A stretch of DNA of 33,978 nt from a virus, in the IMG/VR virus record IMGVR_UViG_3300029868_000015. One strand, 5' to 3'. Made by a program: the position numbers and the translations under genes. The notes under the pieces are model-generated. The model saw only the letters and a list, made by a program, of their open reading frames with translations. It was not told the DNA's origin and made no database searches. Shown piece after piece: positions 5,850 to 28,726 of this stretch (within the stretch, counting starts at the first letter, position 1; every line of letters begins with the position of its first letter).

Positions 5850-5873
5850 TCCTCAACAACAAAGGGCGAAACC

Positions 5874-9918: not shown

Positions 9919-9921
9919 AAA

Positions 9922-11169: not shown

Positions 11170-12338
11170 TGGCTTTTCAAGGCGGTGGGTTAAACCCATT
11201 ACTACAAGCTTTGCAGCAGCGGCAACAAGTACAGGGTGGGCAAGTTCCGCAACCGCCTGTTATCCAAACGGGGCCGGATCGTAGTCAGTTGGTCGCGCAG
11301 TTATTGCAGCAGCAACAAGCGCAGCAGCCTAGAAACATTGGTTCTATTGGCGAAGGTCTAGCTAGATTGGGTTCTAGGCTTGTTGATACAGCAGCAGGCA
11401 AGAGCCGCATTGATAAACAGGTATCAGCGCAGGAGACACAGCAGCAAGCAATAGCTCAAGCCCTTCAGGGTGCGTTCGCTGGTGATGAAGGTGCATTAGG
11501 CCAGGTCGCACAGTTTAACCCGCAGTTAGCGGCGCAATTGAAGGCACAACAGCTAGCGCAAAAGGCCAGGAGTGATGCCGCACAGGCCACACCAGCATCG
11601 CAGGCTGCCTTTAAAGCCCTAACCGCCGGCCTATCAGAAGAAGAAGTAACCGAGGCTCAGAAAATTAGGCTTGGCTTATCCCCTAGAGCTGTAGGCGCTG
11701 CCGCTAAAACCTTCGATATTGGCGGGGTTCCTCACGTATTCGATCCGGTAACGCAGGAAGTAGTGCCTGTAGAAGTCGGGGGTGCTGACATAACATCTAA
11801 AGAGGTTGGAGTATCTAGGGCCGAAATAGCCGAGGCTAAAAAGCGCGGTGAAGGTAAAGGAACGCTTGCAGGAAAGACTATAGATAAAGGGTTTACTGCA
11901 ATCGGGAAAATAAGAGCCAACCTATTTAACATTGATCGGGCTATTGCCGCACTAGACAAAGGCGCTGACACCGGAGCTGTATCTAGGTTCCTACCAAGCG
12001 TAAGGGCTTCGACTGTTGAGCTTAACCAAATACAAAATGAACTAGCTCTTGATGTTGTTGGCGCGACCACCTTTGGTGCGCTAAGTGCTGGGGAACTTGC
12101 GCTAGCGAGAGAAACGGCGCTCCCTACCGGATTATCACCCGCTGCTTTGAAAGAGTTCCTTGTTAACAAGAAGACGGCACAAACAAAGCTATCTAATTAC
12201 TTCCAGCAGCAAATAGAGTTTTTAGAGGATGGCGGAACAGTGGTAGAGTTCTTGCGGCAACAGGGAGGAGGGGCTGAAGCTCCTACAGACCTTTCGCAGC
12301 TTACAGATGAAGAATTATTGAAGAGATTGAACCAGTAA
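11169..12338 (+). CDS. Internal virion / ejection protein (candidate)
   Basis: 389 aa, Q/A-rich, with a TAATG overlap. It sits at the position of the P22 ejection proteins. Confidence 0.4.
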   Translation: MAFQGGGLNPLLQALQQRQQVQGGQVPQPPVIQTGPDRSQLVAQLLQQQQAQQPRNIGSIGEGLARLGSRLVDTAAGKSRIDKQVSAQETQQQAIAQALQGAFAGDEGALGQVAQFNPQLAAQLKAQQLAQKARSDAAQATPASQAAFKALTAGLSEEEVTEAQKIRLGLSPRAVGAAAKTFDIGGVPHVFDPVTQEVVPVEVGGADITSKEVGVSRAEIAEAKKRGEGKGTLAGKTIDKGFTAIGKIRANLFNIDRAIAALDKGADTGAVSRFLPSVRASTVELNQIQNELALDVVGATTFGALSAGELALARETALPTGLSPAALKEFLVNKKTAQTKLSNYFQQQIEFLEDGGTVVEFLRQQGGGAEAPTDLSQLTDEELLKRLNQ

Positions 12339-16257: not shown

Positions 16258-16456
16258 CTTATTTTCGGCTCTACTTGCAGACCTTAACGAAAACGCCGCA
16301 GCATACGGGTTAATAATTTCATTATGCATAGGGTTGATTGGTGTTATAATCCACGCCATACGAGGTGAAATCAACACAAGAGTAACAAAGAGAAACGCCC
16401 TGCTTACCAGAAAAGAACAGGCTCGGCACAATAGGGCGATTGAAGAAGCTAATTAG
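16247..16456 (+). CDS. Small membrane protein with a charged C-terminus
   Basis: Starts at ATG 16247 (alternative GTG 16205). Contains the TM segment YGLIISLCIGLIGVIIHAI and then a basic tail. It is the last gene of the rightward block. Confidence 0.5.
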   Translation: MTGSLFSALLADLNENAAAYGLIISLCIGLIGVIIHAIRGEINTRVTKRNALLTRKEQARHNRAIEEAN

Positions 16457-16769
16457 ATTCCTCCCAGGCATTCACAGCCCACGCCACCAAATCAATATCA
16501 TACATCTTCCTGAAGGCCTCTTCACCTCCGAGTAAATGCACGCCGTAACGACCCATATGGTGTTCAATATGACAAAGAGGAACCACAAACCTGTGATCCC
16601 TCCTTCTAGCTTTACCCTTCATATGCATAATATGGTGTGGAACAGCCTCCCTACCGCACACTAGGCATCCATAAGACAAAACCCGGTCAATGTGTGCCTG
16701 CTCTACCTTGTTGGGGTCTGCTGCCCCTTTAGGCTTAATGCGTTTGTGTTTGGGAGCTTTTGGCCGCAT
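16449..16769 (-). CDS. HNH-type nuclease, DUF968 / phage P1 Ref-like (candidate)
   Basis: Internal ATG 16769 follows the SD AAGGAG (the track start 17027 overlaps the upstream gene). The sequence CLVCGREAVPHHIMHMKGKARRRDHRFVVPLCHIEHHMGRYGVH fits the recalled pattern CxxC...HH...PLC..HH. Confidence 0.55.
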   Translation of the reverse strand: MRPKAPKHKRIKPKGAADPNKVEQAHIDRVLSYGCLVCGREAVPHHIMHMKGKARRRDHRFVVPLCHIEHHMGRYGVHLLGGEEAFRKMYDIDLVAWAVNAWEESN

Positions 16770-16776
16770 AGTCTTT

Positions 16777-17079
16777 CTAACTCCTTGCAATACTGCCCTC
16801 AAGATCCAGACCTTCAGCTTTTGATAGAGCGGCTTCAGTGTGAATATGTGAAGACCTGTATTGGCGTTTGTGGTTCCACTTTGCCAGCCTAAGGAATATA
16901 CCTGTTGTCTTCTCAATTCGTGCGAGTAAACAAGCGGTGACTTCCTTTTCACGCTTGGCAGTCTTAGCGCCCCATTCCTTGTCTCGTTCGGTTTGTGCGT
17001 GCTGTACAGCCTTAAGTGTGCGGTCAAACTCGCCGTCTTTTGTATATCCGCCCAGCAGTTTAATTAAAAAGTCTCTCAT
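16777..17079 (-). CDS. Hypothetical protein (100 aa)
   Basis: ORF preceded by a 38-nt gap. No motif recognised. Confidence 0.5.
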   Translation of the reverse strand: MRDFLIKLLGGYTKDGEFDRTLKAVQHAQTERDKEWGAKTAKREKEVTACLLARIEKTTGIFLRLAKWNHKRQYRSSHIHTEAALSKAEGLDLEGSIARS

Positions 17080-17117
17080 CGTCTCGCCTCTCTCTAGTTA
17101 ACTTAAATCTGGTTAAT

Positions 17118-17450
17118 TTATTTCACAATGTGAACAGTTACCCCGTAGTGCGCCTTTACCAGTGCGCGCTTTAGCTTTGATGTTGAGGTATCCATTCCCT
17201 TGAAGTCTTCTATAATCTCTCCCCTTTCCTTATCCATGTATTTGAAATCAGCTTTATATACAGCTTGTCTGCCACTTTCGTATTTAACCGGGACATCGCC
17301 ACAATAGAGCTTAAATGATGGCTGTAGCTCCAGGTTACTAATAACTCCGCCACGCTCTAATAGCTTTAGCTCCCGATACCTGCGGCCCTCGCCTCTACTT
17401 GCAAACCTAATGCCGTCAATGGTTATAGGCTTTGCGCCGTACTTATTCAT
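17118..17450 (-). CDS. DUF1064-like protein (putative nuclease / resolvase-like)
   Basis: MNKYGAKPITIDGIRFASRGEGRRYRELKLLERGG...YKADFKY...IEDFKG matches the recalled DUF1064 pattern. ATG 17450 follows the SD-like GAGAG, so the track start 17462 is less likely. Confidence 0.6.
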   Translation of the reverse strand: MNKYGAKPITIDGIRFASRGEGRRYRELKLLERGGVISNLELQPSFKLYCGDVPVKYESGRQAVYKADFKYMDKERGEIIEDFKGMDTSTSKLKRALVKAHYGVTVHIVK

Positions 17451-17451
17451 T

Positions 17452-17646
17452 CTAGCTCTCATCTTTTGGGGGTTTGTTGGCTAAATAGAACTCGGCGATT
17501 GCGTTGTAGAGCGCATTGCCAGTCTTGTCTCGATAACCACCATCAAAGCTCACCCCAAAACATTCAGTCAGAGAGTCAAATAACTCGTGACAACACTGCT
17601 CAATGTATTCGCTTTCCGGTCCTGTCAATTTATCCCTAGCTTCCAT
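17452..17646 (-). CDS. Hypothetical protein (64 aa)
   Basis: ATG 17646 follows the SD AAGGAT and overlaps the upstream gene by 11 nt. The C-terminus is ...LANKPPKDES. Confidence 0.5.
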   Translation of the reverse strand: MEARDKLTGPESEYIEQCCHELFDSLTECFGVSFDGGYRDKTGNALYNAIAEFYLANKPPKDES

Positions 17647-17974
17647 TGTCTGTATCCTTCGGGCGTTTGTTGTCAAAACTAGGGAAAAAATTAGCAGGAT
17701 CGGCATAGTAAGCGTGACTGCACATAATCACGTTTCTAAAACCATCGTCGCCGGTGAACATTGCCAGTATTGGATGAAAGCCACCATCAACCAAAATAAG
17801 CCACGGATTACCACTAGGCGCGTATTCGCTCTTAGGCCATGTCTTAACGTCCTCAGGGTCAAGCGTATCCCAAGCCGCATCAATACCAGCGCGCAGCATC
17901 GGCGCGGCTATGGGGGAAACGAATTCCTTTGCGGCTTCATCCTCGGCGGCAAGTTTCATTTTTTCGCTAATCAT
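17636..17974 (-). CDS. Hypothetical protein (112 aa)
   Basis: ATGA overlap with the upstream gene. The C-terminus is ...FDNKRPKDTDNGS. Confidence 0.55.
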   Translation of the reverse strand: MISEKMKLAAEDEAAKEFVSPIAAPMLRAGIDAAWDTLDPEDVKTWPKSEYAPSGNPWLILVDGGFHPILAMFTGDDGFRNVIMCSHAYYADPANFFPSFDNKRPKDTDNGS

Positions 17975-18198
17975 TTGATGCTCCCATCATTTGGGGGTTT
18001 GTTGGCAACTAGTTTGATGTGGCTTTTTCGTGCTGGATCGTTGTTAGTAACCTCAAAATCTCCATGTTGGATAAGCAAAGAAATATGCTCTTTCGCATCA
18101 CCTTCTTGCTCGAACTGCATAGCGTCATCACTGATAATGTGATCTTCATCCGATCCTAAAAATAGGCCAGTCGGCTTATGTTTGATTACGTACGTCAT
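17971..18198 (-). CDS. Hypothetical protein (75 aa)
   Basis: ORF with the C-terminus ...VANKPPNDGSIK. Confidence 0.55.
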   Translation of the reverse strand: MTYVIKHKPTGLFLGSDEDHIISDDAMQFEQEGDAKEHISLLIQHGDFEVTNNDPARKSHIKLVANKPPNDGSIK

Positions 18199-18210
18199 GT
18201 TATTTATCCG

Positions 18211-18366
18211 TTACTTTCTCGGCCTTAAAAAATACTCGTCAATGAAATGGACACCCCAAAGCAAAACGAAACTTGCATCAGCACGCTTGCCTCGGCTCTC
18301 TGTCTTGCGAACCAACCAAAACCCCACAAGAAGATATATTGCTATTGTGATGGCTATGATTTCCAT
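18211..18366 (-). CDS. Small membrane protein (51 aa, MEIIAITIAIYLLVGFWLV...)
   Basis: Hand-translated because it is below the track size cutoff. ATG 18366 is in an ATGA overlap with the upstream stop. One clear TM segment. Confidence 0.45.
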   Translation of the reverse strand: MEIIAITIAIYLLVGFWLVRKTESRGKRADASFVLLWGVHFIDEYFLRPRK

Positions 18367-18782
18367 CACGTCTCTCCCTCGACAGGTGATAGGGGTGAGT
18401 TGGCAGGATTTCCAAAGGCGGCTTGTGCGGCCTCAGTAACGGGCGTCATAGCTTCGCCATAACCCCAAACATCACCGCGCCAGTCTTTAAAGTTTCTGAA
18501 ATAATTTAAATTCACCGGCTTACCCTTTCGAATGTAGTCGGTGAACATTTTGACAATACTTTGAAGCGTTCCGCCGTTGGTGAAACCCTTATGCCAATTG
18601 TTCATGCCTGTTAGATAAATTGCCTTATTGGTATATTCATCACGCCATCTAAGATGGCCATCAAACCCAAGGAAAAAATGACCGTAGCGATCAAACTTTT
18701 TGCTGTAGAAAAACCGGCGACCATTATCGGCCATGACACGTATGAAGGTGTTCACCTGCTTTATGCGATCCGCTTTATTCAT
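18366..18782 (-). CDS. Hypothetical protein (138 aa)
   Basis: ATGA overlap with the upstream gene. Aromatic-rich sequence with no family recognised. Confidence 0.55.
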   Translation of the reverse strand: MNKADRIKQVNTFIRVMADNGRRFFYSKKFDRYGHFFLGFDGHLRWRDEYTNKAIYLTGMNNWHKGFTNGGTLQSIVKMFTDYIRKGKPVNLNYFRNFKDWRGDVWGYGEAMTPVTEAAQAAFGNPANSPLSPVEGET

Positions 18783-19030
18783 TGCTCAGTCTCCAGGGGG
18801 CGTTTGTTGGCCGGACGGGCCATTGCCCAAGTGGACTTAACTTTAACCGCATGGCTATAACCAGCGAACAAATCATTTCCTGTTGTTCCAGGATACGCAG
18901 TGGTCGTTATGCCGTTAATATTTAATTCAGTATTCACCCCCAGCAGGGTTGCAACACGGCAAAGCTCGTCACAGCCCTCTCGTATAGAAGGCCCCGCAAC
19001 ATTGTCTAACTTGAGTGTAAGGATGCCCAT
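18779..19030 (-). CDS. Hypothetical protein (83 aa)
   Basis: First gene downstream of the inverted cassette, with a candidate promoter of its own. The C-terminus is ...PANKRPLETEQ. Confidence 0.55.
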   Translation of the reverse strand: MGILTLKLDNVAGPSIREGCDELCRVATLLGVNTELNINGITTTAYPGTTGNDLFAGYSHAVKVKSTWAMARPANKRPLETEQ

Positions 19031-19048
19031 TGCTTTATCTTTCCTTTA

Positions 19049-19057
19049 TGATACAAT
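19049..19057 (+). promoter_or_regulatory. Candidate extended -10 promoter for the recombinase-like gene
   Basis: TGATACAAT (TGn plus TACAAT) lies about 50 nt upstream of the TTG start at 19107. Confidence 0.3.
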
Positions 19058-19077
19058 TCTTGTTACCAATTACATTT

Positions 19078-19105
19078 ACTGTACTAGATATGTAGGAGTT
19101 GTCAA
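19078..19105 (-). promoter_or_regulatory. Candidate sigma70-like promoter reading leftward into 18779..19030
   Basis: On the minus strand: TTGACA (19105-19100), a 16-nt spacer, then TACAGT (19083-19078). Confidence 0.4.
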
Positions 19106-19106
19106 G

Positions 19107-19649
19107 TTGAATTCAAGATTTAAAATAGGTTTTATTCAGGTTCTTAATTATGGCCCATCTGCCGATCAACAGGAACAAATGCTTGTTGGTGCTGGCGTGC
19201 TGAAGGACAACATATTCAGATCAAAGCCTGATACTATTCTTGATGCAATCAACGCCTGCCGTTTAGGTGACAAAAACATTCTTGTCGTAGCCTTTGAGCG
19301 TATCCTTGGTAAGCTTACAGGCGAGGTATTCAAACAGTTGGATGAACGGGGCGCAGACCTTTACTGTGTGGCTAGCGATACCCTGTACCCTGGCGCTAAT
19401 GGTGCGACGTTCTGCGAGTTCCTTAAGCAAAAGCAAAAGGGGCAGACTGCCAAGGCACGTTCTATGCGTGGTGATAGAAAAGGCGGCGCTCCCGTTAAGG
19501 TCACTGCTACCGACCTGCTGCGCGCTGAGAAGCTTATTCATCAAGGCTGGTCTATGCGCGAAGTCACTGACGAACTTGGCGTGGCTCCTAACTACCTCTA
19601 TCGCAAAGGGATTACGCTTGAGAGTGTCACGGCCAAGTACGACAACTGA
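19107..19649 (+). CDS. Serine-recombinase (resolvase/invertase)-like protein lacking the catalytic serine, with a C-terminal HTH; probable DNA-binding regulator
   Basis: TTG start lies 8 nt after AGGAG. IGFIQVLNYGPSADQQEQMLVGAGV..NIF...GDKNILVVAFERILGK aligns by eye with the resolvase pattern GYxRVSTxxQ....L...G.....if.D...GD.LvV..lDRLgR, but RVS is replaced by QVL. The C-terminal WSMREVTDELGVAPNYLYRK is HTH_7-like. Confidence 0.6.
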   Translation: MNSRFKIGFIQVLNYGPSADQQEQMLVGAGVLKDNIFRSKPDTILDAINACRLGDKNILVVAFERILGKLTGEVFKQLDERGADLYCVASDTLYPGANGATFCEFLKQKQKGQTAKARSMRGDRKGGAPVKVTATDLLRAEKLIHQGWSMREVTDELGVAPNYLYRKGITLESVTAKYDN

Positions 19650-19660
19650 TGACTGTTTGC

Positions 19661-19891
19661 TCATGTTCCATGCTCCATATATTGCAAATAAACATCTAAA
19701 GCCGCGAGCATTGGCCATTTAACATTGGTGCCCATAAAGCCCATGTTTTGGTAATGAGTGTCCATCCCAATCAGTGCCCGAGTTTCTCTTTCGGTCATAT
19801 CAAACTGTTCTGAGAGTTTTTCAACATCGTGTCCCTTGCAGAGTTCGTCTACCCATTCCACGATAGATGTATTATCAACTGTAGACTTCAT
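19661..19891 (-). CDS. Hypothetical protein (76 aa)
   Basis: ATGA overlap with the upstream gene. N-terminus MKSTVD. Confidence 0.55.
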   Translation of the reverse strand: MKSTVDNTSIVEWVDELCKGHDVEKLSEQFDMTERETRALIGMDTHYQNMGFMGTNVKWPMLAALDVYLQYMEHGT

Positions 19892-20082
19892 ATCATTACC
19901 TCAATCTTTACAGGCACAAATTTCAGACGCTTAAATAGTTCGTATTCACCACATATTGTATCGTGAAAATTAAGCTCGGCTTCTTCCTCATTCGATCCAA
20001 TGGCGTTGATGTAATAAACATCTTCAACAGGATCATAGGGGATTACACCCTTGAATTTCTTGTCAACTGATGACTGTTTCAT
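19888..20082 (-). CDS. Hypothetical protein (64 aa)
   Basis: ATGA overlap with the upstream gene. N-terminus MKQSSVD. Confidence 0.55.
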   Translation of the reverse strand: MKQSSVDKKFKGVIPYDPVEDVYYINAIGSNEEEAELNFHDTICGEYELFKRLKFVPVKIEVMI

Positions 20083-20318
20083 TCGATCACTCCTTCAGCC
20101 TTCAGCACAAGTTCAAGCATATGCTCAATAACCTTGCTTGCTTCAGGGCTTCTCTCTGCCGCTTTTTGAATGATTGCTTGATAGCGCCCGCAAATCATCG
20201 CGGTTGCCATACCAGAAGTGGCTGAGTGCCTATATTCGTAGCTTTCGAGCATTGCCATAAGCTCGACCACGCGAGGCAATCTATTGATGACAACTGAGGA
20301 CCTAGTAGAACTCGACAT
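20079..20318 (-). CDS. Hypothetical protein (about 79 aa)
   Basis: ATG 20318 (or 20321) follows the SD GGAGG. The track start 20441 lies inside the upstream gene. N-terminus MSSSTRSSVV. Confidence 0.5.
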   Translation of the reverse strand: MSSSTRSSVVINRLPRVVELMAMLESYEYRHSATSGMATAMICGRYQAIIQKAAERSPEASKVIEHMLELVLKAEGVIE

Positions 20319-20604
20319 CATTAACCTCCGGTTTCTGCGGCTTTGATAATTTAGGGCCCGGTGGGTTTGGCGGAAGCATCCAGTGCGTAGGCAGCAGGAA
20401 CGGGCCAAGCCATGTAGCCGTTGTCGGCGTCCATGCTTCATCCAAGGAATCCCACCCGCCAGTAGTCATGAATGGCTCTTTGAAAAGAACCCCTTCAAAT
20501 TCCTGTGAGAATTCGGGTTTGCAATACATCAGAATATGCGTCCCATCTTTGGGCGCTGTTTCCATTGGCTGCCATGTGCTATCTGATGACTTTGAATTGC
20601 TCAT
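20302..20604 (-). CDS. DUF551-like protein
   Basis: ATG 20604 is in an ATGA overlap. WQPMETAPKDGTHILMY resembles the recalled DUF551 N-terminal motif (W.p....P.dG..vL). Confidence 0.5.
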   Translation of the reverse strand: MSNSKSSDSTWQPMETAPKDGTHILMYCKPEFSQEFEGVLFKEPFMTTGGWDSLDEAWTPTTATWLGPFLLPTHWMLPPNPPGPKLSKPQKPEVNDVEFY

Positions 20605-20891
20605 AGTGACAACCTCACTTTTTGAAACGGGATAATACCAACTATCTCTTCGTCGGGAAAAACAGGCTCCTTTGACCACTCAACTTTAAAGTTGAAATAC
20701 ATGCGGCCATCCCCACTGAATTTATAGTTTCCGGGGTTAGGAATATGGACGTGCGGCAGTGCATCAACCAGATTTTGAGCCTGCCCTTTAGTGATCCTAC
20801 ATTTGCGCGCTAATTCAGAAAGCCATATGGGACCACTGCCTTTTACAATGCGGGTTAGCTTTTCGCCCATGTCAACTGAGGACTGTTTCAT
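20601..20891 (-). CDS. Hypothetical protein with a winged-helix-like segment
   Basis: N-terminus MKQSSVD. LSELARKCRITKGQAQNLVDAL looks like an HTH. Confidence 0.5.
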   Translation of the reverse strand: MKQSSVDMGEKLTRIVKGSGPIWLSELARKCRITKGQAQNLVDALPHVHIPNPGNYKFSGDGRMYFNFKVEWSKEPVFPDEEIVGIIPFQKVRLSL

Positions 20892-21109
20892 AAATCTAAC
20901 CCTTCCAAAATCTTGCGCTTCGAAACCTCCAACATGAAAACCGCTGATGAGTTATCCATATGACTGCTGGTGATTGCTAATGCGCCGTCCTTGTCATAGC
21001 TAATTATCAGAACATCTTTCATGCCTTCACGTCCGACCTTTTCAAGTGCTTGTTCAACCGTCATTTTATCATGATTGTTTAACTCGCTGACAACTGATGA
21101 CTTAGACAT
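20888..21109 (-). CDS. Hypothetical protein (73 aa)
   Basis: ATG 21109 (MSKSSVV...) overlaps the peptidase stop by 8 nt. The track start 21127 is less likely. Confidence 0.5.
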   Translation of the reverse strand: MSKSSVVSELNNHDKMTVEQALEKVGREGMKDVLIISYDKDGALAITSSHMDNSSAVFMLEVSKRKILEGLDL

Positions 21110-21545
21110 GTGGCAACCCCTTCGCATAAAGATTGTGCGTCTTAGTTAAAACCTCGTTCCGGTTCTTCTCTGAGATGCTGCAATGTATCCAGGCTTTCCC
21201 GAGCTGACGCTGTTCGAGTATGAGCTGGTCAAACTCAACATTGTCTCTAATCCAGCGCGCTAGATTTACAATGTCAATTCCTGGCACGGTGAAGTCAACA
21301 GCTTGGCCTAGCATGTGCTGGCTTTTCGGTGAGCCTCCTATAGCCGAGTTAAGCGCCTCACATCTAAACCCGCTACTAGGCGTTATCGGTACACCGTAAT
21401 GCTCTCTGACGGGCTGTAAAATCTCGTTACATACGCGCTCAAGGTATTCTTCTGCCTTCTTGTCAGGCGTGTTGTCTATGCCTTCACGTTCCGCTGTATC
21501 GCTGCGGGTCATTTCTGCAAGGGTAAAGTTTTTGCTCAGTTCCAT
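21102..21545 (-). CDS. Peptidase M15 family (VanY / L-alanyl-D-glutamate peptidase-like) cell-wall hydrolase; endolysin candidate
   Basis: FTLAEMTRS...SGFRCEALNSAIGGSPKSQHMLGQAVDF...WIHCS matches the recalled Peptidase_M15_3 zinc-site pattern (SGyR...N...GG...SqH..G.AvD...H). Confidence 0.8.
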   Translation of the reverse strand: MELSKNFTLAEMTRSDTAEREGIDNTPDKKAEEYLERVCNEILQPVREHYGVPITPSSGFRCEALNSAIGGSPKSQHMLGQAVDFTVPGIDIVNLARWIRDNVEFDQLILEQRQLGKAWIHCSISEKNRNEVLTKTHNLYAKGLPHV

Positions 21546-22141: not shown

Positions 22142-22299
22142 CCGAGCTAGAAAGATTTAAGCACGACATTGACCAGCAGATAATTGCGCTGGAGGGTTAT
22201 CTTTTAGGCAAAGGCCAAACCCAGGCGGTGCGGGAACTGATGTTTCAGAAGCAGCGATTTGACCAAATTATGAACGAACAAATAAAGGGCGAGATATGA
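22138..22299 (+). CDS. Small hypothetical protein (53 aa)
   Basis: Hand-translated as MTELERFKHDIDQQIIALEGYLLGKGQ.... ATGA overlaps are present at both ends. Confidence 0.45.
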   Translation: MTELERFKHDIDQQIIALEGYLLGKGQTQAVRELMFQKQRFDQIMNEQIKGEI

Positions 22300-23105
22300 G
22301 CGAATTAAATATACACCAGCGGATTGCAGCAGTTATGCAGGCTATCGCATACGTGCAAAAAGAGAATAAAAAGGTCAACAATCAGTACACGTTTGTTAGC
22401 CATGACGCCGTTACAGCGGCAGTGAGAACGCACCTTATTGATAACGGTATCGTTGTTATCCCCACGGTGACAAAGCATATACAGGACGGCAACAGGACCG
22501 AGGTAGATTTAAACATCGACTTCGTGAACATTGATAAACCTGAAGACAAGATTTCAGTGCAGATGTTCGGCTATGGTGTTGACCAACAAGACAAGGGGCC
22601 GGGCAAGGCTTTCTCATACGCAAAGAAATACGCCTTCCTGCAATTGTTCCTCTTGGAAACTGGCGACGATCCAGAGCGTGACAACATTGACCACAGGAAA
22701 ACATCGCGCACGAAAACAGCGGTTCACAAGGATATGAAAGCCGCAGCGTTTAAGATGACACAGACCGCAACCATTGAAGCGTTTGAAAGCTTCTTGGCTG
22801 GTGACGGGTTCCAAAAGCTGATTAAAGAGTTACGCAGTGAATGGCCTGAAGAATTTCAAGGCTTGCGTGAAGAGAAGGACAAGCACAAGAAACGCCTTGA
22901 GGCTGGCCCAAAGCTCACCAGTGAAGATATACAGCTCTATATAGAGAAGTTCACTAAAGACCTTAGCTCTGAATTTGATGCTGGAATGTGCGCGGAAATG
23001 TTTAAGATAGCCAAGAACGACCTGTTAAAAGCTGCCGCAACTGGCGAGCAAATCCATGAGGTCGAGGTTGCTTATGATGAACACATACAGCGCTTAGGTG
23101 ATTAA
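22296..23105 (+). CDS. erf: ERF-family single-strand annealing recombinase
   Basis: The N-terminal 130 aa (IHQRIAAVMQAIAYVQKENKKVNNQYTFVSHDAVTAAVRTHLIDNGI...GPGKAFSYAKKYAFLQLFLLETGDDPE) match the recalled ERF domain pattern. Confidence 0.75.
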   Translation: MSELNIHQRIAAVMQAIAYVQKENKKVNNQYTFVSHDAVTAAVRTHLIDNGIVVIPTVTKHIQDGNRTEVDLNIDFVNIDKPEDKISVQMFGYGVDQQDKGPGKAFSYAKKYAFLQLFLLETGDDPERDNIDHRKTSRTKTAVHKDMKAAAFKMTQTATIEAFESFLAGDGFQKLIKELRSEWPEEFQGLREEKDKHKKRLEAGPKLTSEDIQLYIEKFTKDLSSEFDAGMCAEMFKIAKNDLLKAAATGEQIHEVEVAYDEHIQRLGD

Positions 23106-23512
23106 TGTTATTCCGCCGTACACTTGAAGGCTTTTCCCCTGCTGACACAGAGGCGGGGGATTGGCACCACAAGACCAAGCTAGGCGCACTGGTGGAGCTT
23201 AAAGGCAACCGGCCACGCAATCCACAGCATCACCGAAAGTTCTTTGCCTTGATGAACATCGTTGTAGACAATAGCGATGACTACGACACGGTGGAACAAT
23301 TCAGGTTTGTGTTAATGGCCACACTACAGCGGGGCAAGTGGATAGAGGTTCCGCACGCAACCAGGGCAATGTTTATCCCTGAAAGCATATCGTTCAAGAG
23401 CATGAAGCAGGAGGATTTCGACACGCTGTACAATGCTGCGATTAATGCAATCCTGAAATACTTCATACCGATGGACAGAGACGACCTGATAGAAATGATT
23501 GCTTTAGCTTAG
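23105..23512 (+). CDS. DUF1367-like phage protein
   Basis: NPQHHRKFFALMNIVVDN and the overall size resemble the recalled DUF1367 family. Confidence 0.45.
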   Translation: MLFRRTLEGFSPADTEAGDWHHKTKLGALVELKGNRPRNPQHHRKFFALMNIVVDNSDDYDTVEQFRFVLMATLQRGKWIEVPHATRAMFIPESISFKSMKQEDFDTLYNAAINAILKYFIPMDRDDLIEMIALA

Positions 23513-23525
23513 ATATTCATAGATT

Positions 23526-23593
23526 GCCCTCAAACATCTGACCCGAGGGCATCAACAGGGGTGAGGTTGTTGTTTTCCCCAGCGCCTCACCCC
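23526..23593 (+). other. Two consecutive stem-loops in the gap after 23512
   Basis: GCCCTC (23526-31) pairs with GAGGGC (23545-50). GGGGTGAGG (23558-66) pairs with CCTCACCCC (23585-93). There is no T run, so this is not a canonical intrinsic terminator. Confidence 0.5.
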
Positions 23594-23611
23594 AAACCTA
23601 AAAGGTGACAT

Positions 23612-23740
23612 ATGAGTGAGAACCCAGGATTTCAAGAGTTCAAAACGGTGAAAGACCTAGAGAAGTACGAACCCGGCGCGGCAAAGAAGATGCAGGAGCT
23701 GCGGGCAAAGTGGAAGCGTGAGGAGAAAGACGGTGAGTGA
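23612..23740 (+). CDS. Small hypothetical protein (42 aa)
   Basis: Hand-translated as MSENPGFQEFKTVKDLEKYEPGAAKKMQELRAKWKREEKDGE. The SD-like aaaaggtg lies upstream. Confidence 0.4.
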   Translation: MSENPGFQEFKTVKDLEKYEPGAAKKMQELRAKWKREEKDGE

Positions 23741-23843
23741 TTTACTGGTTATTTCCGCGTTAGGTGTTGGCTTTATCTTGGGGTGCGGATTTGCAATGTT
23801 GTTAATCGTTTTAGCTCGGAAATTGAAAAAGGATGAGACATGA
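23733..23843 (+). CDS. Small single-TM peptide (36 aa)
   Basis: GTG lies 7 nt after GAGGAG. Reads (M)SDLLVISALGVGFILGCGFAMLLIVLARKLKKDET. An ATGA overlap joins it to the next gene. Confidence 0.4.
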   Translation: MSDLLVISALGVGFILGCGFAMLLIVLARKLKKDET

Positions 23844-24106
23844 CCAACTACGTAATAGAAAAATCACCAACGAAAAGCATATCCTTAACACCAACCATTA
23901 AAATAGAAGCGTGCAAAGATAGTGTTTTAATCACCATGACTGATTGCAACAAGGCATTAAAGTTTGGTGGCATTGTCATAGATAGCAATGCGGATGGCGT
24001 CCATAACTTTATTGATGATGCATCCGAATGGCTGAAAGATGAGCTAGTAAGGGCGATAGATTTAGTAATTAAAGGTTCATCAAAAATTAACTTGCACGAA
24101 GACTAA
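23840..24106 (+). CDS. Hypothetical protein (88 aa)
   Basis: ORF in the track with no motif recognised. Confidence 0.55.
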   Translation: MTNYVIEKSPTKSISLTPTIKIEACKDSVLITMTDCNKALKFGGIVIDSNADGVHNFIDDASEWLKDELVRAIDLVIKGSSKINLHED

Positions 24107-24120
24107 CTAAATAATACTAT
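24092..24120 (+). promoter_or_regulatory. Candidate promoter at the left edge of the long noncoding region
   Basis: TTGCAC (24092-97), a 17-nt spacer, then TACTAT (24115-20). Confidence 0.25.
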
Positions 24121-24579
24121 ATGCATGCAACACGTTTTGACCTCGTATGTGGTCAATATGTAACGGGGAGCTAGAGATAGCTCTTGAACGTTAGGCCCCA
24201 GTCCTTTCTGCTCCCCATTTCTACCCACTGGAACCGCTTACTGGGCGCGGTGTCTATTTCAGACAAAACACTTCCCAAGGACTAAACCCCAAGATTTGGC
24301 TGACCGCAGCATTTCTTGTGTATGAGTTGACTACTGTGGTGTCTAGCGTCAGTCAACAGGCCAGAGCGAAAGAAGGATGGTCTTGCTAGCATAGGGAGAA
24401 TGGCCCCTAAGAAAGAACCTTCGAGGCGTGAGTGTCGTTAATCACGCTGACCGTAAGACCACTACAAAGCTCTAAAGGTTTTTAGATGGCCCGGTAAGCT
24501 CTACCCCTTGCTCTAATAAGCTTGGTTGGTAGAGCTATGACCAACGACATACAAGATAAAGGTTTTTAGGAACTTACAG
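24107..24579 (+). ncRNA. 473-nt noncoding, stem-rich region upstream of the HNH gene (candidate structured RNA or cis-acting DNA site, class unknown)
   Basis: No plausible ORF on either strand. At least 8 stems of 5-9 bp were read by eye (listed in the findings), one with a GAGA tetraloop. The 3' part contains internal repeats of about 85 nt. Confidence 0.4.
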
Positions 24580-25071
24580 ATGTATATATGGAACAGTAGG
24601 AAACTAGGTAAACAACACATTTTAAGCCCTGAAGGAAAATCATGGTGCAATGTAGAAAATAGTGGTGTGGATCTAAATGTGAGTTCAATGAGCGCAAACG
24701 GATCAAGAAAAATATGCAGCCTTTGTGCGCGTAAAGCTAGTGCGCCTCCTAAAAAAAAGAAGAAGCACAAGGCAAAAAAGGGTTCGCCTAAATACCGTGA
24801 TAACTTTTACAGAAGCATGTCCTGGAAGAAATTACGTTACAAAGCTTTGAAGTTTAATAACGGTAAATGTGAATTGTGCGGAGCTTCTAAACACTACGGC
24901 GCAGTCCTTAATGTAGACCATATAAAACCTAGAAAGCACAGACCCGACCTCGAATTAAAACTAAGCAACCTGCAAGTTCTTTGTGCAAGCTGCAACATGG
25001 GAAAGTGCAACGACGACGATACAGACTGGCGAGAACCTTCACTGAAGAAATTAATGGGCGAAGAGATGTAG
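24580..25071 (+). CDS. HNH endonuclease (free-standing)
   Basis: CELCGASKHYGAVLNVDHIKPRKHRPDLELKLSNLQVLCASCNMGK is a classical HNH motif. The start is uncertain, with an in-frame ATG at 24688 as an alternative. The N-terminal part is AT-rich with a K-run. Confidence 0.8.
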   Translation: MYIWNSRKLGKQHILSPEGKSWCNVENSGVDLNVSSMSANGSRKICSLCARKASAPPKKKKKHKAKKGSPKYRDNFYRSMSWKKLRYKALKFNNGKCELCGASKHYGAVLNVDHIKPRKHRPDLELKLSNLQVLCASCNMGKCNDDDTDWREPSLKKLMGEEM

Positions 25072-25102
25072 AGCTATGCCTGAAACACAAAGGAGAGAGA
25101 GA

Positions 25103-25294
25103 ATGAAGTGGATTTTAGTAATATTTTTGGTCGGCGCTCCAGAAGGCGGTGCTGATGTTAAAACCATAGAAATGGAAACAAAGGAGCTGTGTGAAGTCGC
25201 TGCGAGGGCGGTTCCAAAGGTGAGTGACGGTGGATGGATTAGGTTCGTAGCTAAAGCATTTTGCGTTAAGGTAAGGGAGCAAGACAGTGAGTGA
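25103..25294 (+). CDS. Small protein with an N-terminal hydrophobic segment (63 aa)
   Basis: ATG 25103 follows the SD AAGGAGAGAGAG. Begins MKWILVIFLVGAPEGG... Confidence 0.5.
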   Translation: MKWILVIFLVGAPEGGADVKTIEMETKELCEVAARAVPKVSDGGWIRFVAKAFCVKVREQDSE

Positions 25295-25511
25295 GCGAAC
25301 AGTTAAGAAGGTTACGTCTTTTGAGGCCACTGACGGGAAAGGTTTCCTGACACTGGAAGAAGCAATAAGCCACCAGATAAAATTAGAGCTTGAGGAATTT
25401 TGCATTCAACGCGGTATTTTTGGGGAAGGACTGCCTGCCTTAGATGTAGCTGAAGGACTGTTTGATTGGCAGGATCAATTGCGCTCAATTCTGGCGGGAG
25501 AACCCCAGTGA
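25287..25511 (+). CDS. Hypothetical protein (74 aa)
   Basis: GTG start within the junction sequence GTGAGTGA. Confidence 0.5.
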   Translation: MSERTVKKVTSFEATDGKGFLTLEEAISHQIKLELEEFCIQRGIFGEGLPALDVAEGLFDWQDQLRSILAGEPQ

Positions 25512-25765
25512 GTAAACGGTACGAATATAAAAAAGATATTTACATTGAAGCCTACCCACTAGAAGACGTCCTGAATAAAGAAGGTGGTGAAGGTTGGCGT
25601 GCGATAAAGGTGGAAGGCAACGAACTTAGAGGCGATATACTTTTTGAACGGGAAATAATAGAACAAGACACACAATACACGGACTTCTTGCGATCATTAC
25701 TCGGAACCGATGAAGCAATTTCACTTGCTGAAGCCACAAGAGAATACTGGGGGCGAGACAAATGA
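25508..25765 (+). CDS. Hypothetical protein (85 aa)
   Basis: GTG 25508 is in a GTGA overlap (junction GTGAGTAA). The track start 25466 is upstream. Confidence 0.5.
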   Translation: MSKRYEYKKDIYIEAYPLEDVLNKEGGEGWRAIKVEGNELRGDILFEREIIEQDTQYTDFLRSLLGTDEAISLAEATREYWGRDK

Positions 25766-26433
25766 ATGAGAGAGAATTAACAGAATACAACGAACGCTGG
25801 CTTAAAGAGTGCGAGAAGGACGAGAACCTTTTCGACCATGAGCGCGCATTACTACGGGTTATGATTGGCGCGTTGCCTTCACCGGAGAAAAACAAAGAGA
25901 GCATGTTAGAGATCCTTGGGGAGATGTCCAAAAACTACAATAGGGGCGATGCCGACCAAGGTGAACCGGGCGGCGATTTCCTGACCACCAGCAAGAAGAA
26001 AAAACTTAAAGGTGCAGACCTAGAAAAGTTCTGGTTGTTTTGGAATGCGTTTGACTACAAGAAAAGCCGTGCAGAAGCCGCACAAGCTTGGATGGATATT
26101 CAAGACACCAAAGACGAAGCGTTCATGGAGGCAATCCTGTACGCAGCCCGCCAGACCGTAAGCGAGCGAAAGCCTACAGTTACACCCAAGATGGCACAAG
26201 GCTGGCTCTCAGCGCGTCGGTGGGAGGATTACGAGGCATCTAACGCACAAGCACCAACAGAATGGAACCTAGACAAGTGGAGGGAAACGCTAGACGGCCC
26301 AGCAGGTAGCTTTATGAAGCGCTCGCAATCCTGGCCAGAATACATGCCCGGCCATAACCCATGGGAACACCGCAACACAGATATACCCCGCGAAGTTCAC
26401 CTAATTTATGCAGAGAAGTGGAATTGGAAATGA
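25762..26433 (+). CDS. Hypothetical protein; weak resemblance to replication-organiser-type proteins
   Basis: LEKFWLFWNAFDYKKSRAEAAQAWMDI...PKMAQGWLSARRWEDYE resembles a pattern I recall (F..FW..Yp.K..k..A...w......P....WL...rWeD) from proteins annotated as replication or DnaD-like. This is unverified. Confidence 0.3.
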   Translation: MNERELTEYNERWLKECEKDENLFDHERALLRVMIGALPSPEKNKESMLEILGEMSKNYNRGDADQGEPGGDFLTTSKKKKLKGADLEKFWLFWNAFDYKKSRAEAAQAWMDIQDTKDEAFMEAILYAARQTVSERKPTVTPKMAQGWLSARRWEDYEASNAQAPTEWNLDKWRETLDGPAGSFMKRSQSWPEYMPGHNPWEHRNTDIPREVHLIYAEKWNWK

Positions 26434-26603
26434 GTAAATCGTTATTTTATACAGTGCCGTGCTGGATCAAACATTCTTGGTCAGAATGGTCAAGGCCGCT
26501 AGAAGTAATATTTGAAGAAACCGTTTTTCTTCCTTCAAGTGAAGGTCTGGTGCAACAGAGATCATGTAGCAAGTGCAATCGCATTCACACGAGGAAGCTA
26601 TGA
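26430..26603 (+). CDS. Small Cys-containing protein (57 aa)
   Basis: ATG 26430 is in an ATGA overlap. Contains C..W...C..C. Confidence 0.45.
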   Translation: MSKSLFYTVPCWIKHSWSEWSRPLEVIFEETVFLPSSEGLVQQRSCSKCNRIHTRKL

Positions 26604-26836
26604 AAAATGCATCAGTTATCAACGTGGTGGATATGGGTGAATTTAAATTTAACAGCTACAATATCATATCCGAGAGTGATTTCAATAAAGCCACTTTACA
26701 GCGGACGTCGTTCATAGATGTAGGAACTAATCTAGGGCGCATCGCGTTATTTCTTGTTGGGGGAAAAGTCTACAAGCGCACAGGACAAGACGGGGAATTT
26801 CAATACTGGTTAATCAAGGAGGTGATCTATGAATAA
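26600..26836 (+). CDS. Hypothetical protein (78 aa)
   Basis: ATG 26600 is in an ATGA overlap. Confidence 0.5.
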   Translation: MKNASVINVVDMGEFKFNSYNIISESDFNKATLQRTSFIDVGTNLGRIALFLVGGKVYKRTGQDGEFQYWLIKEVIYE

Positions 26837-27041
26837 TCTATCAATAGACAAGGTATCAAAAGCACACATCGCAGCATCTCAAGCTGTAGACCAATACCTA
26901 GAAGGACACCCCGAGCGATCAGCATGGGATATGCCCGCAGAGATAGCCAAGAAACGCGGTTGGGGATGGGCAACAGGGACAATCAGCGGCAGGGAATACG
27001 CTGCATTCGTTCTGATGTTCAACGCATTAGTTAGGGAATAG
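26829..27041 (+). CDS. Hypothetical protein (70 aa)
   Basis: ORF in the track with the SD aaggagg upstream. Confidence 0.55.
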   Translation: MNNLSIDKVSKAHIAASQAVDQYLEGHPERSAWDMPAEIAKKRGWGWATGTISGREYAAFVLMFNALVRE

Positions 27042-27043
27042 TT

Positions 27044-27400
27044 ATGATATTCGAAAGAAAGAGAGTTAGCAAAGATTATTTATACAAGGCAATAGAAACG
27101 CTAAACGGCACATTAAACCGCTATGCGTCGGTAATTGAGATAGCAAAATATTTAAACTGTGAGCCTGAAGCATTATCAAGGCCGCTGCATTTATTGGTGG
27201 CGAAAGGATTAATCAAACATGACATACAAGATGGGTTATTTTTCCGCGTGGTACCGAAGCACTTTGTTAAGGCGAAGGCTAAGAAAACTAGAAAAGTTGG
27301 TAGACCGCTTAGCAAGAAAGATGCAAACGGAAAGCTAATACACCTTAAAAGATACAACGAATATGGGCTTAAGATAATTCAAGGGCATGTTGTATTATAG
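27044..27400 (+). CDS. Winged-helix DNA-binding protein with a basic C-terminal region (late regulator candidate)
   Basis: YASVIEIAKYLNCEPEALSRPLHLLVAKGLI is wHTH-like. It is followed by KAKAKKTRKVGRPLSKK. This is the last gene before the tailspike cluster. Confidence 0.45.
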   Translation: MIFERKRVSKDYLYKAIETLNGTLNRYASVIEIAKYLNCEPEALSRPLHLLVAKGLIKHDIQDGLFFRVVPKHFVKAKAKKTRKVGRPLSKKDANGKLIHLKRYNEYGLKIIQGHVVL

Positions 27401-27484
27401 CAACGCAAGGAAAAAGTTATTGTTAACCGCGTTCATATAAAGGGGTTTAGATAGTTCTGTAATATTTGTTCTGAGTTAATATTT

Positions 27485-28726
27485 ATGAGGCGAGACGTTA
27501 TATTGGAAACAATCATGACGGTATACCAATTCGTAGGCGGTGAACTCGCTTCAAGTAGTGATACAGAGATACTAGTGCAGAAAGCCTCCGACCTAGCAGG
27601 TACACTAAGGAGCGACGTTGCCTATTTAATTGACGGCAGCATTGATATGGGTAGCCAATCCATAATAGTTCCGCAGGGTGGTTTAACCTTGATGGGGAAT
27701 GGTTTCAATATCGCACAGCTAACAACCAGCGTAACCAACGCAACTCTATTTGTAGACGATGGTGTTTTTGCTGGAGATTTATTCCTTCGCATGATGGATA
27801 TTGAAGTTACAGGAACCGGCGCGAAAGTGTTTGACCTAGATAATAACGAAAATTCTGACGCGATAGAATTTGACGCTGTTAACTTCAATAATTGCACAAG
27901 CCTTGGTTCAATGGATAGCTACAGGCAGCTACTTGCGAGAAACGTTGCATTCTTTGCCCCTGCTGACGGGCTGGAATTTATCGGCCCGTGGTCCGGTGGT
28001 TTAGCTATTGTTGACACAATTGTAATTCTATTGCCATCTGGCGCAACATTATTTAAAGCTGGTACGGGTTTCCTTGTGGGCGCAAGTGTTCGCTCAGATA
28101 TGAACGCGTTATCAGTAGATGCCAGTTCAACTATATTTGACTTTGCACCATCTAACATCACCCCTGATGGTGGGTTCTCATTAAGCAACTTCAGAACAGC
28201 CGCAGACGATGCATTGCCTAATTTCCCCTCTTCTAGTGTGAAGGCTAATTTCTCAAACTGTATTGGTATTAGTAACACATTCCCTGGCGGCAACTGGTCT
28301 ATATCCAGCGCTGCAACAACCACAATCGGAATGGTTGACACATTAGTTAAGCTTGCAGGAACCACCACATACAACGGGTTGCAGTGGTTTACAGGTTCGA
28401 ACAACAATGAGTTTGTTTTTGAGTCCACACAGGAAATTGACATTGTTGTTTCTGGTATATTGACCTTCACAGGCGGCGCTAACGATGAGATGGCCGTGCA
28501 GATACGAAGGTTTGACGATAGCGCAAGTTCATACGTAAATGTAGGTTCAGAGTTTAGCACTACTATCAGTTCAGGAGGCAGGGCCTCAAATTTACCGTTT
28601 AGAGGTGTAACAACCGTAGCAGAGAATGACCGTATTGAAGTATGGGTTAAGAACCTGACGGATGACACAGATATAACTGGATCAGTCGGCGGTAGTGTAG
28701 CCATTGGCGAGCGCTCATCTGTATAG
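27485..28726 (+). CDS. Tailspike / receptor-binding protein with a beta-helix-like repeat pattern
   Basis: About 400 aa, rich in G/N/S/T/V/I beta-strand periodicity (…IIVPQGGLTLMGNGFNIAQL…IEVTGTGAKVFDLDN…AVNFNNCTSLG…). The start is uncertain, with ATG 27515 as an alternative. Confidence 0.5.
   Translation: MRRDVILETIMTVYQFVGGELASSSDTEILVQKASDLAGTLRSDVAYLIDGSIDMGSQSIIVPQGGLTLMGNGFNIAQLTTSVTNATLFVDDGVFAGDLFLRMMDIEVTGTGAKVFDLDNNENSDAIEFDAVNFNNCTSLGSMDSYRQLLARNVAFFAPADGLEFIGPWSGGLAIVDTIVILLPSGATLFKAGTGFLVGASVRSDMNALSVDASSTIFDFAPSNITPDGGFSLSNFRTAADDALPNFPSSSVKANFSNCIGISNTFPGGNWSISSAATTTIGMVDTLVKLAGTTTYNGLQWFTGSNNNEFVFESTQEIDIVVSGILTFTGGANDEMAVQIRRFDDSASSYVNVGSEFSTTISSGGRASNLPFRGVTTVAENDRIEVWVKNLTDDTDITGSVGGSVAIGERSSV

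Follow-up and report, generated by a model that had tools for sequence, protein, structure and literature searches.

A noncoding gap in the viral DNA of IMG/VR record IMGVR_UViG_3300029868_000015, a stretch of 33,978 nucleotides (nt) that was analyzed in full and is called the window below, carries an element of approximately 400 nt that lies in front of an HNH endonuclease gene and an operon. Judged by helices that covary among seven members, the element is a previously undescribed family of structured leader RNA that falls in no Rfam 15 family; the 5' domain of the window copy is a structured RNA with covariation support, and the RNA family is real. The literature searches made found no description of it. 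An initial annotation of the window had proposed a structured RNA and placed a promoter candidate where the gap begins on the left, and had named covariation in homologous regions as a check; the helices that covary in the relatives now argue for that proposal. We tentatively read the element as a regulatory leader that would gate read-through into the operon behind it.

A shared 5' domain behind a conserved promoter motif

The 5' domain (24137 to 24285, approximately 160 nt) is the part shared across the family. The features of the element in the window are as follows.

24092 to 24120, + strand: sigma-70-like promoter (TTGCAC at 24092-97, 17 nt, TACTAT at 24115-20)
24137 to 24156, + strand: hairpin P1, TTGACC..GGTCAA
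24165 to 24185, + strand: hairpin P2a, GGGGAGCUA-GAGA-UAGCUCUU
24193 to 24205, + strand: hairpin B (AGG / CCU) with the 7-nt loop Y (CCCCAGU, 24196-24202)
24210 to 24216, + strand: C-run GCUCCCC, an alternative partner of GGGGAGC (24165-71)
24227 to 24231, + strand: X1 (ACUGG), the first complement of Y, directly 5' of hairpin C
24233 to 24251, + strand: hairpin C (ACCGC / GCGGU), whose loop holds X2 (ACUGGG, 24240-24245), the second complement of Y
24251 to 24265, + strand: hairpin D (UGUCU-AUUUC-AGACA)
24265 to 24285, + strand: A/C-rich, G-poor tail AAAACACUUCCCAAGG, without predicted pairing
24286 to 24528, + strand: 3' domain
24529 to 24539, + strand: boundary motif GTAGAGCTATG, 11 nt, the left copy of a direct repeat around the HNH cassette
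24540 to 25078, + strand: HNH cassette, with an HNH-only ORF (open reading frame) of 163 amino acids (aa) at 24580-25071 and the right repeat copy at 25068-25078
25762 to 26433, + strand: gene for a 223-aa protein, the constant member of the operon behind the element

Searches with the 223-aa protein led to six distinct relatives, every one of which is preceded by the element, so that the family has seven members with the window, all metagenomic. A noncoding stretch of approximately 450 to 560 nt occupies the same genomic position as the gap in all six, and a sigma-70-like promoter (TTGCNN, 16 to 17 nt, TAnnnT) stands at the start of the element in all seven. We refer to the window, L009, L012, L013, and L024 as type 1 and to L011 and L025 as type 2.

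Window: promoter TTGCAC-N17-TACTAT; Y, CCCCAGT; X1/X2, ACTGG / ACTGGG
L009: noncoding 526-1004; promoter TTGCAA-N17-TATAAT (10/12 consensus matches); Y, CCCGATA; X1/X2, TATCGG / TATCGGG
L012: noncoding 4036-4543; promoter TTGCAC-N17-TACTAT; Y, TTCCACA; X1/X2, TGTGGA / TGTGGAA
L013 (same as L014 and L015): noncoding 2926-3430; promoter TTGCGC-N16-TATACT; Y, CCCGACA; X1/X2, TGTCGG / TGTCGGG
L024: noncoding 431-925; promoter TTGCGC-N16-TATAAT; Y, TCCGAGT; X1/X2, CTCGGA / ACTCGGG
L011: noncoding 1857-2403; promoter TTGCAA-N17-TATTAT; Y, CCCGAAACC; X1/X2, GGTTCGGG / GGTTTCGGG
L025 (short contig): noncoding 259-735; promoter TTGCAA-N17/18-TATAAT; Y, CCCTTGC; X1/X2, GCAAGGG / GCAAGGG

As listed above, every member has its own sequence of loop Y, and in each of the seven this loop complements both X1 and X2. 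In the hand-made 5' alignment (A9, which MAFFT returned unchanged), the share of cells that pair is 98% for Y:X2 and 85.7% for Y:X1, and six of the seven pairs change on both sides in either case; for Y:X2, none of 500 shuffles reached the observed values. The stem of hairpin B pairs in 100% of cells, with three of six pairs changed on both sides, and all four pairs of the hairpin C stem change on both sides. Hairpin D is kept in 7/7 members (100% of cells pair), and one of its positions passes from U-A to U-G in L024 and to C-G in L025. The combined counts for B, C, D, and Y:X2 are 98.4% paired among 122 cells and 14 compensatory pairs among 21, values reached by 0/500 shuffles, while partners slid by 1 to 3 columns pair in only 28 to 47%. 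A perfect 6-mer with two downstream complements arises in 1 to 2% of mononucleotide shuffles of each 5' domain; it was observed in five members, and a 5-mer version was observed in the window and L024. The A/C-rich tail contains the motif ..AAAAUCCCAAA.. in all seven, and a role for it as a Rho or Hfq site would be inference only.

The region upstream of hairpin B is less uniform. P1, which appears in both the minimum-free-energy and the centroid folds, is a variable module: it is absent in L013, and L009 has an equivalent by eye (TGATCAC..GTGGTCA) at the same place. P2a extends the stem at 24168-83 of the initial annotation by two G-U pairs; it pairs in 97.5% of cells in the five type-1 members (slid controls, 36 to 60%), with A-U replaced by G-C in L012 and L024 and with G-U at two positions in four of the five. 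The same G-run has a second possible partner, since a 7-bp stem of GCUCCCC with GGGGAGC would enclose hairpin B and exclude P2a. This pairing is found in 91.4% of cells in the five type-1 members, against slid controls of 54 to 72% that stem from G/C runs, and the sole variable position (A-U to G-C) fits both pairings. In type 2, the P2 part is replaced, by eye, by a 6-bp closing stem with G-U (GCGGCG or GCGAUG versus CGUCGC), while Y, X1, X2, D, and the tail are retained.

Stems, repeats, and folding statistics

Every stem, repeat, and promoter hexamer quoted in the initial annotation was found where it had been placed. The hairpins GAGCTA-GAGA-TAGCTC (24168-83), ACCGC..GCGGT (24233-51), and TGTCT..AGACA (24251-65) are kept in the relatives with compensatory change. 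A long-range pairing of AGTCCTT (24200-06) with AAGGACT (24277-83) had no equivalent in L009 in a reading by eye. The nested hairpin at 24290-318 and the stems GTTGACT/AGTCAAC (24326-57), GCGTGA/TCACGC (24426-47), and AGCTCTACC/GGTAGAGCT (24497-536) are plausible features of the 3' domain of the window, a half that none of the relatives has in common with it; GGTGTCTA recurs at 24249 and 24338, and ATGGCCC recurs at 24400 and 24486. The description of the gap as stem dense also holds. It contains 15 perfect 6-bp stems with loops of 3 to 40 nt, compared to 4.2 ± 2.5 in 1,000 mononucleotide shuffles, none of which reached 15, and coding neighbors of the same length contain 1 to 11.

Strand of the element

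The orientation of the promoter, the G-U pairs, which the other strand would turn into A-C mismatches, and the alifold energy (-65.8 kcal/mol and 77 pairs on the + strand versus -53.2 kcal/mol and 68 pairs on the - strand) favor an RNA read from the + strand. A DNA-level element would account for part of the pattern: Y, X1, and X2 would then be three copies, one of them inverted, of a site for a phage-specific protein, and the hairpins would be palindromes or structures of a single-stranded DNA origin. Three copies of a 5- to 9-bp motif that differs between phages would indeed mimic covariation, and an inverted repeat lies across the -35 hexamer and spacer in four of the seven promoters. Nonetheless, we consider this explanation very improbable, as at least 10 further compensatory helices are not repeated motifs, the invariant G-U pairs and the better fold point to the + strand, and the spacing between X1 and X2 (12 to 16 nt) is not a helical repeat. 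Folded single-stranded DNA of the + strand is likewise compatible with the sequence evidence.

The promoter and its surroundings

The promoter candidate that the initial annotation had placed at the left edge of the gap belongs to a motif kept at the same place in 7/7 members, with a perfect TATAAT -10 hexamer in three relatives, which supports its assignment as a putative promoter. A simple promoter scan of the window flagged a weaker neighboring match and not the TTGCAC/TACTAT pair. Transcription from this promoter would start near 24125-24129.

The inverted repeats across the -35 hexamer and spacer take the forms CTTGC-N11-GCAAG, TTGC-N11-GCAA, and GCGC-N11/12-GCGC (L009, 526-550; L011, 1849-1872; L013, 2929-2952; L024, 431-455) and could be an operator for a dimeric repressor. 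In L025, further noncoding DNA 5' of the element (117-258) includes a further promoter-like site, TTGAAT-N17-TATAAT, as well as a long-looped, GC-rich hairpin of 12 bp, GCGGGGCCAGCA..TGCTGGCCCCCGC.

Several unrelated 3' domains

Between the tail and the boundary motif lies a 3' domain of approximately 250 nt, which occurs in at least four versions without detectable similarity to one another: that of the window, that of L009, L012, and L013, that of L024 and L025, and that of L011. The L009/L012/L013 version is a series of hairpins with 77 pairs, 14 of them compensatory, and many invariant G-U pairs; the L024/L025 version has 58 pairs, 16 of them compensatory. For the window version, no homologue was found with BLAST or with R2, a model of the L009/L012/L013 3' domain that matches only its three source sequences. 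By analogy with the other versions, the 3' domain of the window is probably structured too. Over 211 nt of this domain, the nucleotide identity between L009 and L013 is 85%, compared to 47% identity for their 223-aa proteins, indicating that the domain is strongly constrained or was recently exchanged. A scan of the 3' end of the element in the window, L009, L024, and L011 revealed no terminator-like site. In most members, this end adjoins a G-rich stretch and an ATG; the G-rich stretch is weak in the window.

These properties bear on whether the element might be a stand-alone RNA that is processed from the transcript and acts in trans, as an anti-defense decoy, a sponge for a host factor, or a self-assembling ornate RNA whose Y/X loops would kiss between molecules; its place before the operon would then be incidental. 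Its size of approximately 400 nt, its many helices, and its loop-loop complementarity recall the large phage-associated RNAs, the 3' domain is more conserved than the neighboring proteins, and two X sequences per Y would allow multivalent contacts. On the other hand, no terminator or defined 3' end was detected, the element is strictly linked to one operon and to a boundary with a short ORF in 7/7 members, and nonhomologous 3' domains are unexpected for a single function in trans. Thus, a trans-acting RNA of this kind appears quite unlikely.

Known RNA families and the neighboring HNH cassette

The initial annotation had suggested an intron-like or homing-associated RNA working with the HNH gene, or a member of the HEARO, GOLLD, or ROOL families, and had proposed an Rfam search that included introns and ribozymes. 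Neither the whole window nor the six relative loci gave a match at the gathering threshold of Rfam 15. With E values up to 10, the region, the 5' domain alone, the L009 element, and the relatives returned unrelated noise only (sau-41, IRES_Bip, STnc30, b55, ZMP-ZTP, and freshwater-1). Group I and group II introns were rejected for want of a covariance-model match in Rfam 15, as were GOLLD and ROOL in the window and the six relatives, and an Rfam C4-type RNA had no match even at E values up to 10 on the 181-nt 5' domain. The partner of a HEARO or omega RNA, IscB or TnpB, combines RuvC with HNH and has approximately 400 aa or more. The element gave no HEARO match, and its neighbor is an HNH-only ORF of 163 aa that is absent in four relatives. 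GOLLD, ROOL, and HEARO/omega RNAs do resemble the element in size class, in their many helices, in their occurrence in phage genomes, and in having been found by comparative analysis; the element differs in being smaller, in having no detected terminator-like site, and in accompanying a promoter and the start of an operon instead of tRNAs or IscB/TnpB genes.

The intron-like reading also fails at the flanks. The ORF 5' of the gap is complete (88 aa, with a stop codon), and the downstream genes are complete in the HNH-less relatives, in agreement with the remark in the initial annotation that the flanking ORFs do not look like a split gene.

The HNH ORF matches Pfam HNH (PF01844; 5.7e-9) and phrog_144 (9e-21). 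An HNH gene is absent at this position in L009, L011, L012, and L024, and no HNH ORF was seen in the short L025 contig. L013 and L014 carry a gene of another HNH family (HNH_3, PF13392), slightly further downstream (L013, 3430-3855; L014, 1524-1985). The HNH-less boundary sequence reads ..GGGTAGAGCTATGYCTRAAACA.., and the boundary ends of the relatives are ..GGGTAGAATTATG in L009, GGGTGGAACTATG in L012, GGGTAGAGCTATG in L013, GCGATAGCTATG in L024, and GGATAGAACTATG in L025. In the window, the sequence 3' of the cassette, CCTGAAACACAAAGGAGAGAGAGAATG, resumes the homology with the HNH-less relatives. The window gene therefore combines a catalytic domain, presence or absence among syntenic relatives, and an 11-nt repeat at both ends. 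Because the cassette sits between 11-nt direct repeats and the RNA occurs without HNH, we conclude from the sequence comparison that the cassette is a homing-type insertion with no part in the RNA. As in free-standing HNH homing genes, a small ORF of patchy presence lies beside a conserved sequence with a short direct repeat, and the cassette appears to preserve the expression signals of the downstream gene; the difference is that the conserved neighbor here is the boundary motif of an RNA and not a protein-coding gene.

Two different endonuclease genes at one conserved boundary explain the adjacency to HNH without a functional link. An RNA that works with the HNH protein, or a member of the HEARO, GOLLD, or ROOL families, is thus hardly credible, even though an HNH gene adjoins the element in the window and in L013 and L014: the RNA occurs without HNH in four relatives, none was seen in L025, the two HNH genes differ in Pfam family and in position, the window cassette is flanked by repeats, and the search of Rfam and the flanks argue in the same direction.

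Three smaller observations concern the cassette. The HNH stop codon sits within the second repeat copy. The HNH coding sequence ends in GGGCGAAGAG, which may give the downstream gene a stretch resembling a ribosome-binding site (RBS). One copy of an exact 13-nt repeat, TAAAGGTTTTTAG, is present at 24473-24485 in the 3' domain of the RNA and the other at 24557-24569 in the untranslated 5' part of the cassette; the repeat could reflect the way in which the cassette was acquired, or be due to chance.

Other candidate motifs were rejected. UAGCUCUUGAAC (24178-24189, in the 3' strand of P2a) resembles boxA, GCUCUUUAA, only in the window and L009 and less so in L012, so that the resemblance is probably a coincidence. 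A small ORF after X2 was dismissed, as its start codon (ATG or GTG, seen by eye in the window, L009, and L012 only) is not conserved and its frame shifts between members. A diversity-generating template was also considered and set aside: no other part of the window repeats the element, although some relatives of the 413-aa protein encoded further downstream carry Mtd_N.

Searches for further members

No match to the region was found among GenBank phages with blastn, and the 88-aa upstream protein and ERF retrieved no relatives when used as queries. The HNH protein was abandoned as a route, since its relatives (L001 to L008; 37 to 51% identity) are not syntenic and lack a match to R1, a covariance model of the 5' core built from the five type-1 members. 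R1 scored the type-1 members at 44 to 70 bits, as expected by construction, and L011 at 15 bits, and it missed L025. On approximately 1.5 Mb of other phage and genome loci it found nothing convincing; its three weak matches (13 to 24 bits) were off-target, being neither at pattern matches nor at syntenic positions. R1 gave no credible match when applied to 80 metagenome loci and L222 to L225, which hold distant relatives of the 223-aa protein, its single match there having 13 bits and an E value of 0.22. A motif scan for P2 returned only the contig of L009 in the viral collection and nothing in genomes and metagenomes, a scan with a 3'-domain motif returned the known members and 8 chance matches only, and a scan with a central motif returned 31 genome and 3 viral matches, all by chance except the contig of L009. 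The 413-aa protein was likewise discarded as a route, the element being in none of the 80 viral loci and 3 contigs examined. None of these searches added a member to the family.

The boundary ORF and the operon

In the relatives that were read, the ATG at the boundary opens a short ORF of 7 to 19 codons (by eye), whose end reaches or overlaps the beginning of the first real gene; in L011 the start codon is GTG. Its approximate positions, also by eye, are 24537-24569 and 25076-25105 in the window, 977-1036 in L009, 4516-4554 in L012, 916-939 in L024, and 725-748 in L025. This arrangement suggests translational coupling from the short upstream ORF into the operon.

The 223-aa protein has full-length relatives (P0002 to P0007) with 35 to 71% identity. 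It weakly matches phrog_9474, "replication initiation protein" (8.6e-5), and its central domain recurs in proteins with Phage_rep_O, DUF1376, or DUF4373 N termini. No function for it emerged from Pfam (all seven members), from a PDB sequence search, or from a Foldseek comparison of its AlphaFold model (predicted local distance difference test score, 85) with the PDB.

These neighbors bring in the main rival of the leader reading, namely, a transcript-dependent replication origin, in which the structured RNA would act as an R-loop, a primer, or an activator of an adjacent origin and the alternative Y/X pairings would control folding into a form competent for priming. The control of ColE1 RNA II follows a comparable principle, with one segment that pairs alternatively with two partners. 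In the lactococcal phages of the c2 group (Ceduovirus), a noncoding region lies behind the early promoter PE1, its essential noncoding transcript (PE1-T) is implicated in transcription-mediated initiation of replication, and the origin regions fall into three types that do not align with one another, with conservation above 90% within each (PMC7150918). Like ColE1 RNA II and the c2 PE1 transcript, the element is a noncoding region of the 400- to 600-nt class behind an early promoter, with a predicted structured transcript and several unalignable conserved versions, and it shares with this type of origin a position near replication functions. It differs from both in that it has no sequence similarity to them, no antisense promoter was noted, and it ends in an RBS and a short ORF that lead into an operon.

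For an origin speak the constant position of the element before the operon that holds the only replication-related match of the region, the lack of a polymerase, primase, or helicase match among the screened ORFs, which makes host-dependent priming plausible, the presence of at least four 3' domains that do not align with one another, one of which is kept at 85% identity in distant phages, a pattern like that of c2-group origins, and the G-rich stretch at the 3' end in most members. However, that stretch is weak in the window itself, and together with the ATG it can equally be read as the RBS of the conserved short ORF. No DnaA box was found within 8 kb, no iteron family was found in 23500-27600, and no AT-rich unwinding element was found nearby; the lack of DnaA boxes and iterons makes a classical origin unlikely. 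Both parts of this alternative, the origin and its control by the Y/X pairings, seem unlikely to us, and more so than a leader.

A possible regulatory leader

We favor, with a probability of roughly 45%, a regulatory leader that would control read-through into the operon, a reading in which we infer transcription, switch, and output alike. The sigma-70-type promoter at 24092-24120 would start a + strand transcript near 24127, which would run for approximately 400 nt without an ORF or a detected terminator to the boundary motif and the short upstream ORF (24529-39) and would then enter the operon with the 223-aa gene as its constant member. The 5' domain would serve as a conformational switch, in which Y pairs with X1 or X2 and, in type 1, the G-run at 24165-71 chooses between two exclusive pairings. 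The choice would determine how the region of hairpins C and D and of the C-rich tail folds, leading to termination, Rho access, or antitermination, and would thereby decide whether RNA polymerase and ribosomes pass into the operon. The 5' part with Y may also act in trans on new transcripts, and the 3' domain of approximately 250 nt would be a swappable structured module.

The common position and promoter motif of the seven members, the covariation of the 5' core, the rarity in shuffles of the triple complementarity, and the compatibility of both G-run pairings with all five type-1 members speak for this proposal. Since the element has no detected closing terminator and runs into a G-rich stretch, a short ORF, and an operon, it is best described as a long structured leader with its own promoter. 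Moreover, two independent HNH insertions between the element and the operon have been tolerated, which is easier to reconcile with control of elongation than with control at a single adjacent start codon.

Several points weigh against the leader reading. No conserved intrinsic terminator follows X2, hairpin C being terminator-like only in L009, and X1 and X2 lie approximately 280 nt upstream of the nearest conserved start codon. The reading assigns no role to the 3' domain of approximately 250 nt. The alternative P2 stem of GCUCCCC with the G-run is suggested by five sequences with high slid controls, and the label "replication" for the operon is weak, coming from one weak PHROG match and domain sharing. 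The hand alignment was fitted to the proposed structure, which inflates the percentages paired; compensatory counts and slid controls are less sensitive to such fitting. The global folding energy of the gap is ordinary (z = -1.32 for the + strand and -2.24 for the - strand; -1.5 for the 5' half and 0.0 for the 3' half), so that thermodynamics alone would not single out the gap.

Comparison with antisense immunity systems

The principle that we infer, pairing of an RNA loop with targets in a leader before a replication-related operon, has precedents by analogy. In the systems of the satellite phage P4 (CI RNA) and of P1 and P7 (c4 RNA), a constitutive promoter produces a long untranslated leader in which one internal sequence of a small structured RNA is complementary to two leader targets; in P4, seqB pairs with seqA and seqC. 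The controlled operon carries replication or antirepressor genes, the targets in P1 and P4 coincide with ribosome-binding sites or lie close to them, and between heteroimmune phages changes in the RNA are matched by changes in the target. A target of this type covers the RBS of a small ORF whose translation holds off Rho termination, and the RNA is cut to a small stable form by RNase P and acts in trans. Such leader-encoded antisense immunity was reportedly described by Sabbattini et al. in 1995 (J Bacteriol) and by Citron and Schuster in 1990 (Cell). The element is alike in arrangement: behind a conserved promoter and before a weakly replication-like gene, loop Y faces X1 and X2 with matched changes in 7/7 members, that is, an internal sequence with two repeated targets (Y:X2, 98%; Y:X1, 86%; 6/7 compensatory pairs each). 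The role of c4 is mentioned in PMC8201110, which lists the paper of Citron and Schuster. The element differs from these systems in that it matches neither Rfam C4 nor any other family, both of its targets lie downstream of Y and well before the conserved start codon, and it has an extra structured domain of approximately 250 nt. In addition, no repressor or integrase was found among the screened ORFs, and "immunity" may be the wrong frame.

A bolder proposal, which we regard as doubtful, is control of phage replication by RNA only. Pairing of Y with X1 or X2, specific to each phage, would then act in trans to establish immunity or control copy number, with no protein repressor involved, or the element would be a folding-controlled primer or activator of a host-dependent origin, and the 3' domains would be specificity cassettes.

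Genome context

The window is a phage genome by gene content, and the contig reads as complete or nearly complete. Its main blocks are as follows.

195-14149, + strand: terminase, portal, and structural genes, followed by an Rz-like spanin
16449-21545, - strand: block with a Holliday-junction resolvase and an endolysin
From 21872, + strand: early block with ERF (22296-23105) and NinB/Orf (23105-23512), then small ORFs and the gap
3' of the gap, + strand: HNH (24580-25071), small ORFs, the 223-aa gene, the 413-aa gene, and a Sf6-type small terminase
27485-28726: gene for the 413-aa protein (phrog_16509)

The stretch 24107-24512 is the longest in the window in which neither strand has an ORF of 60 aa or more, and its longest + strand ORF has 33 aa. 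The only other ORF-poor stretch of at least 200 nt is 23513-23839, so that the description of the gap as one of only two long ones is borne out. That second stretch has just two small overlapping ORFs, of 42 and 41 aa, the latter apparently hydrophobic. No integrase, repressor, polymerase, primase, or helicase match was obtained among the screened ORFs, which were part of those in the window, and the window has no tRNA or transfer-messenger RNA. In L011, a tRNA gene (7510-7583; Rfam tRNA, 41 bits) lies 3' of the small terminase gene.

The 413-aa protein has more than 350 relatives in varied contexts, including among structural genes, and some of them carry collagen (PF01391), DUF2190 (PF09956), or Mtd_N (PF18454). 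Its gene behaves like a mobile accessory or receptor-binding gene.

Significance

These data add a covariation-supported phage RNA family of approximately 400 nt that Rfam 15 models do not detect and that folding-energy screens would miss (z from -2.2 to +0.5). One loop set against two downstream repeats, with a sequence that differs in each member, is the signature of specificity systems based on RNA, such as P4/P1 immunity and plasmid copy control. Two independent insertions of homing endonucleases at the conserved boundary of the RNA illustrate that linkage between an RNA and an HNH gene can arise without joint function. If the element gates or primes replication, it would represent replication control at the RNA level in uncultivated phages.

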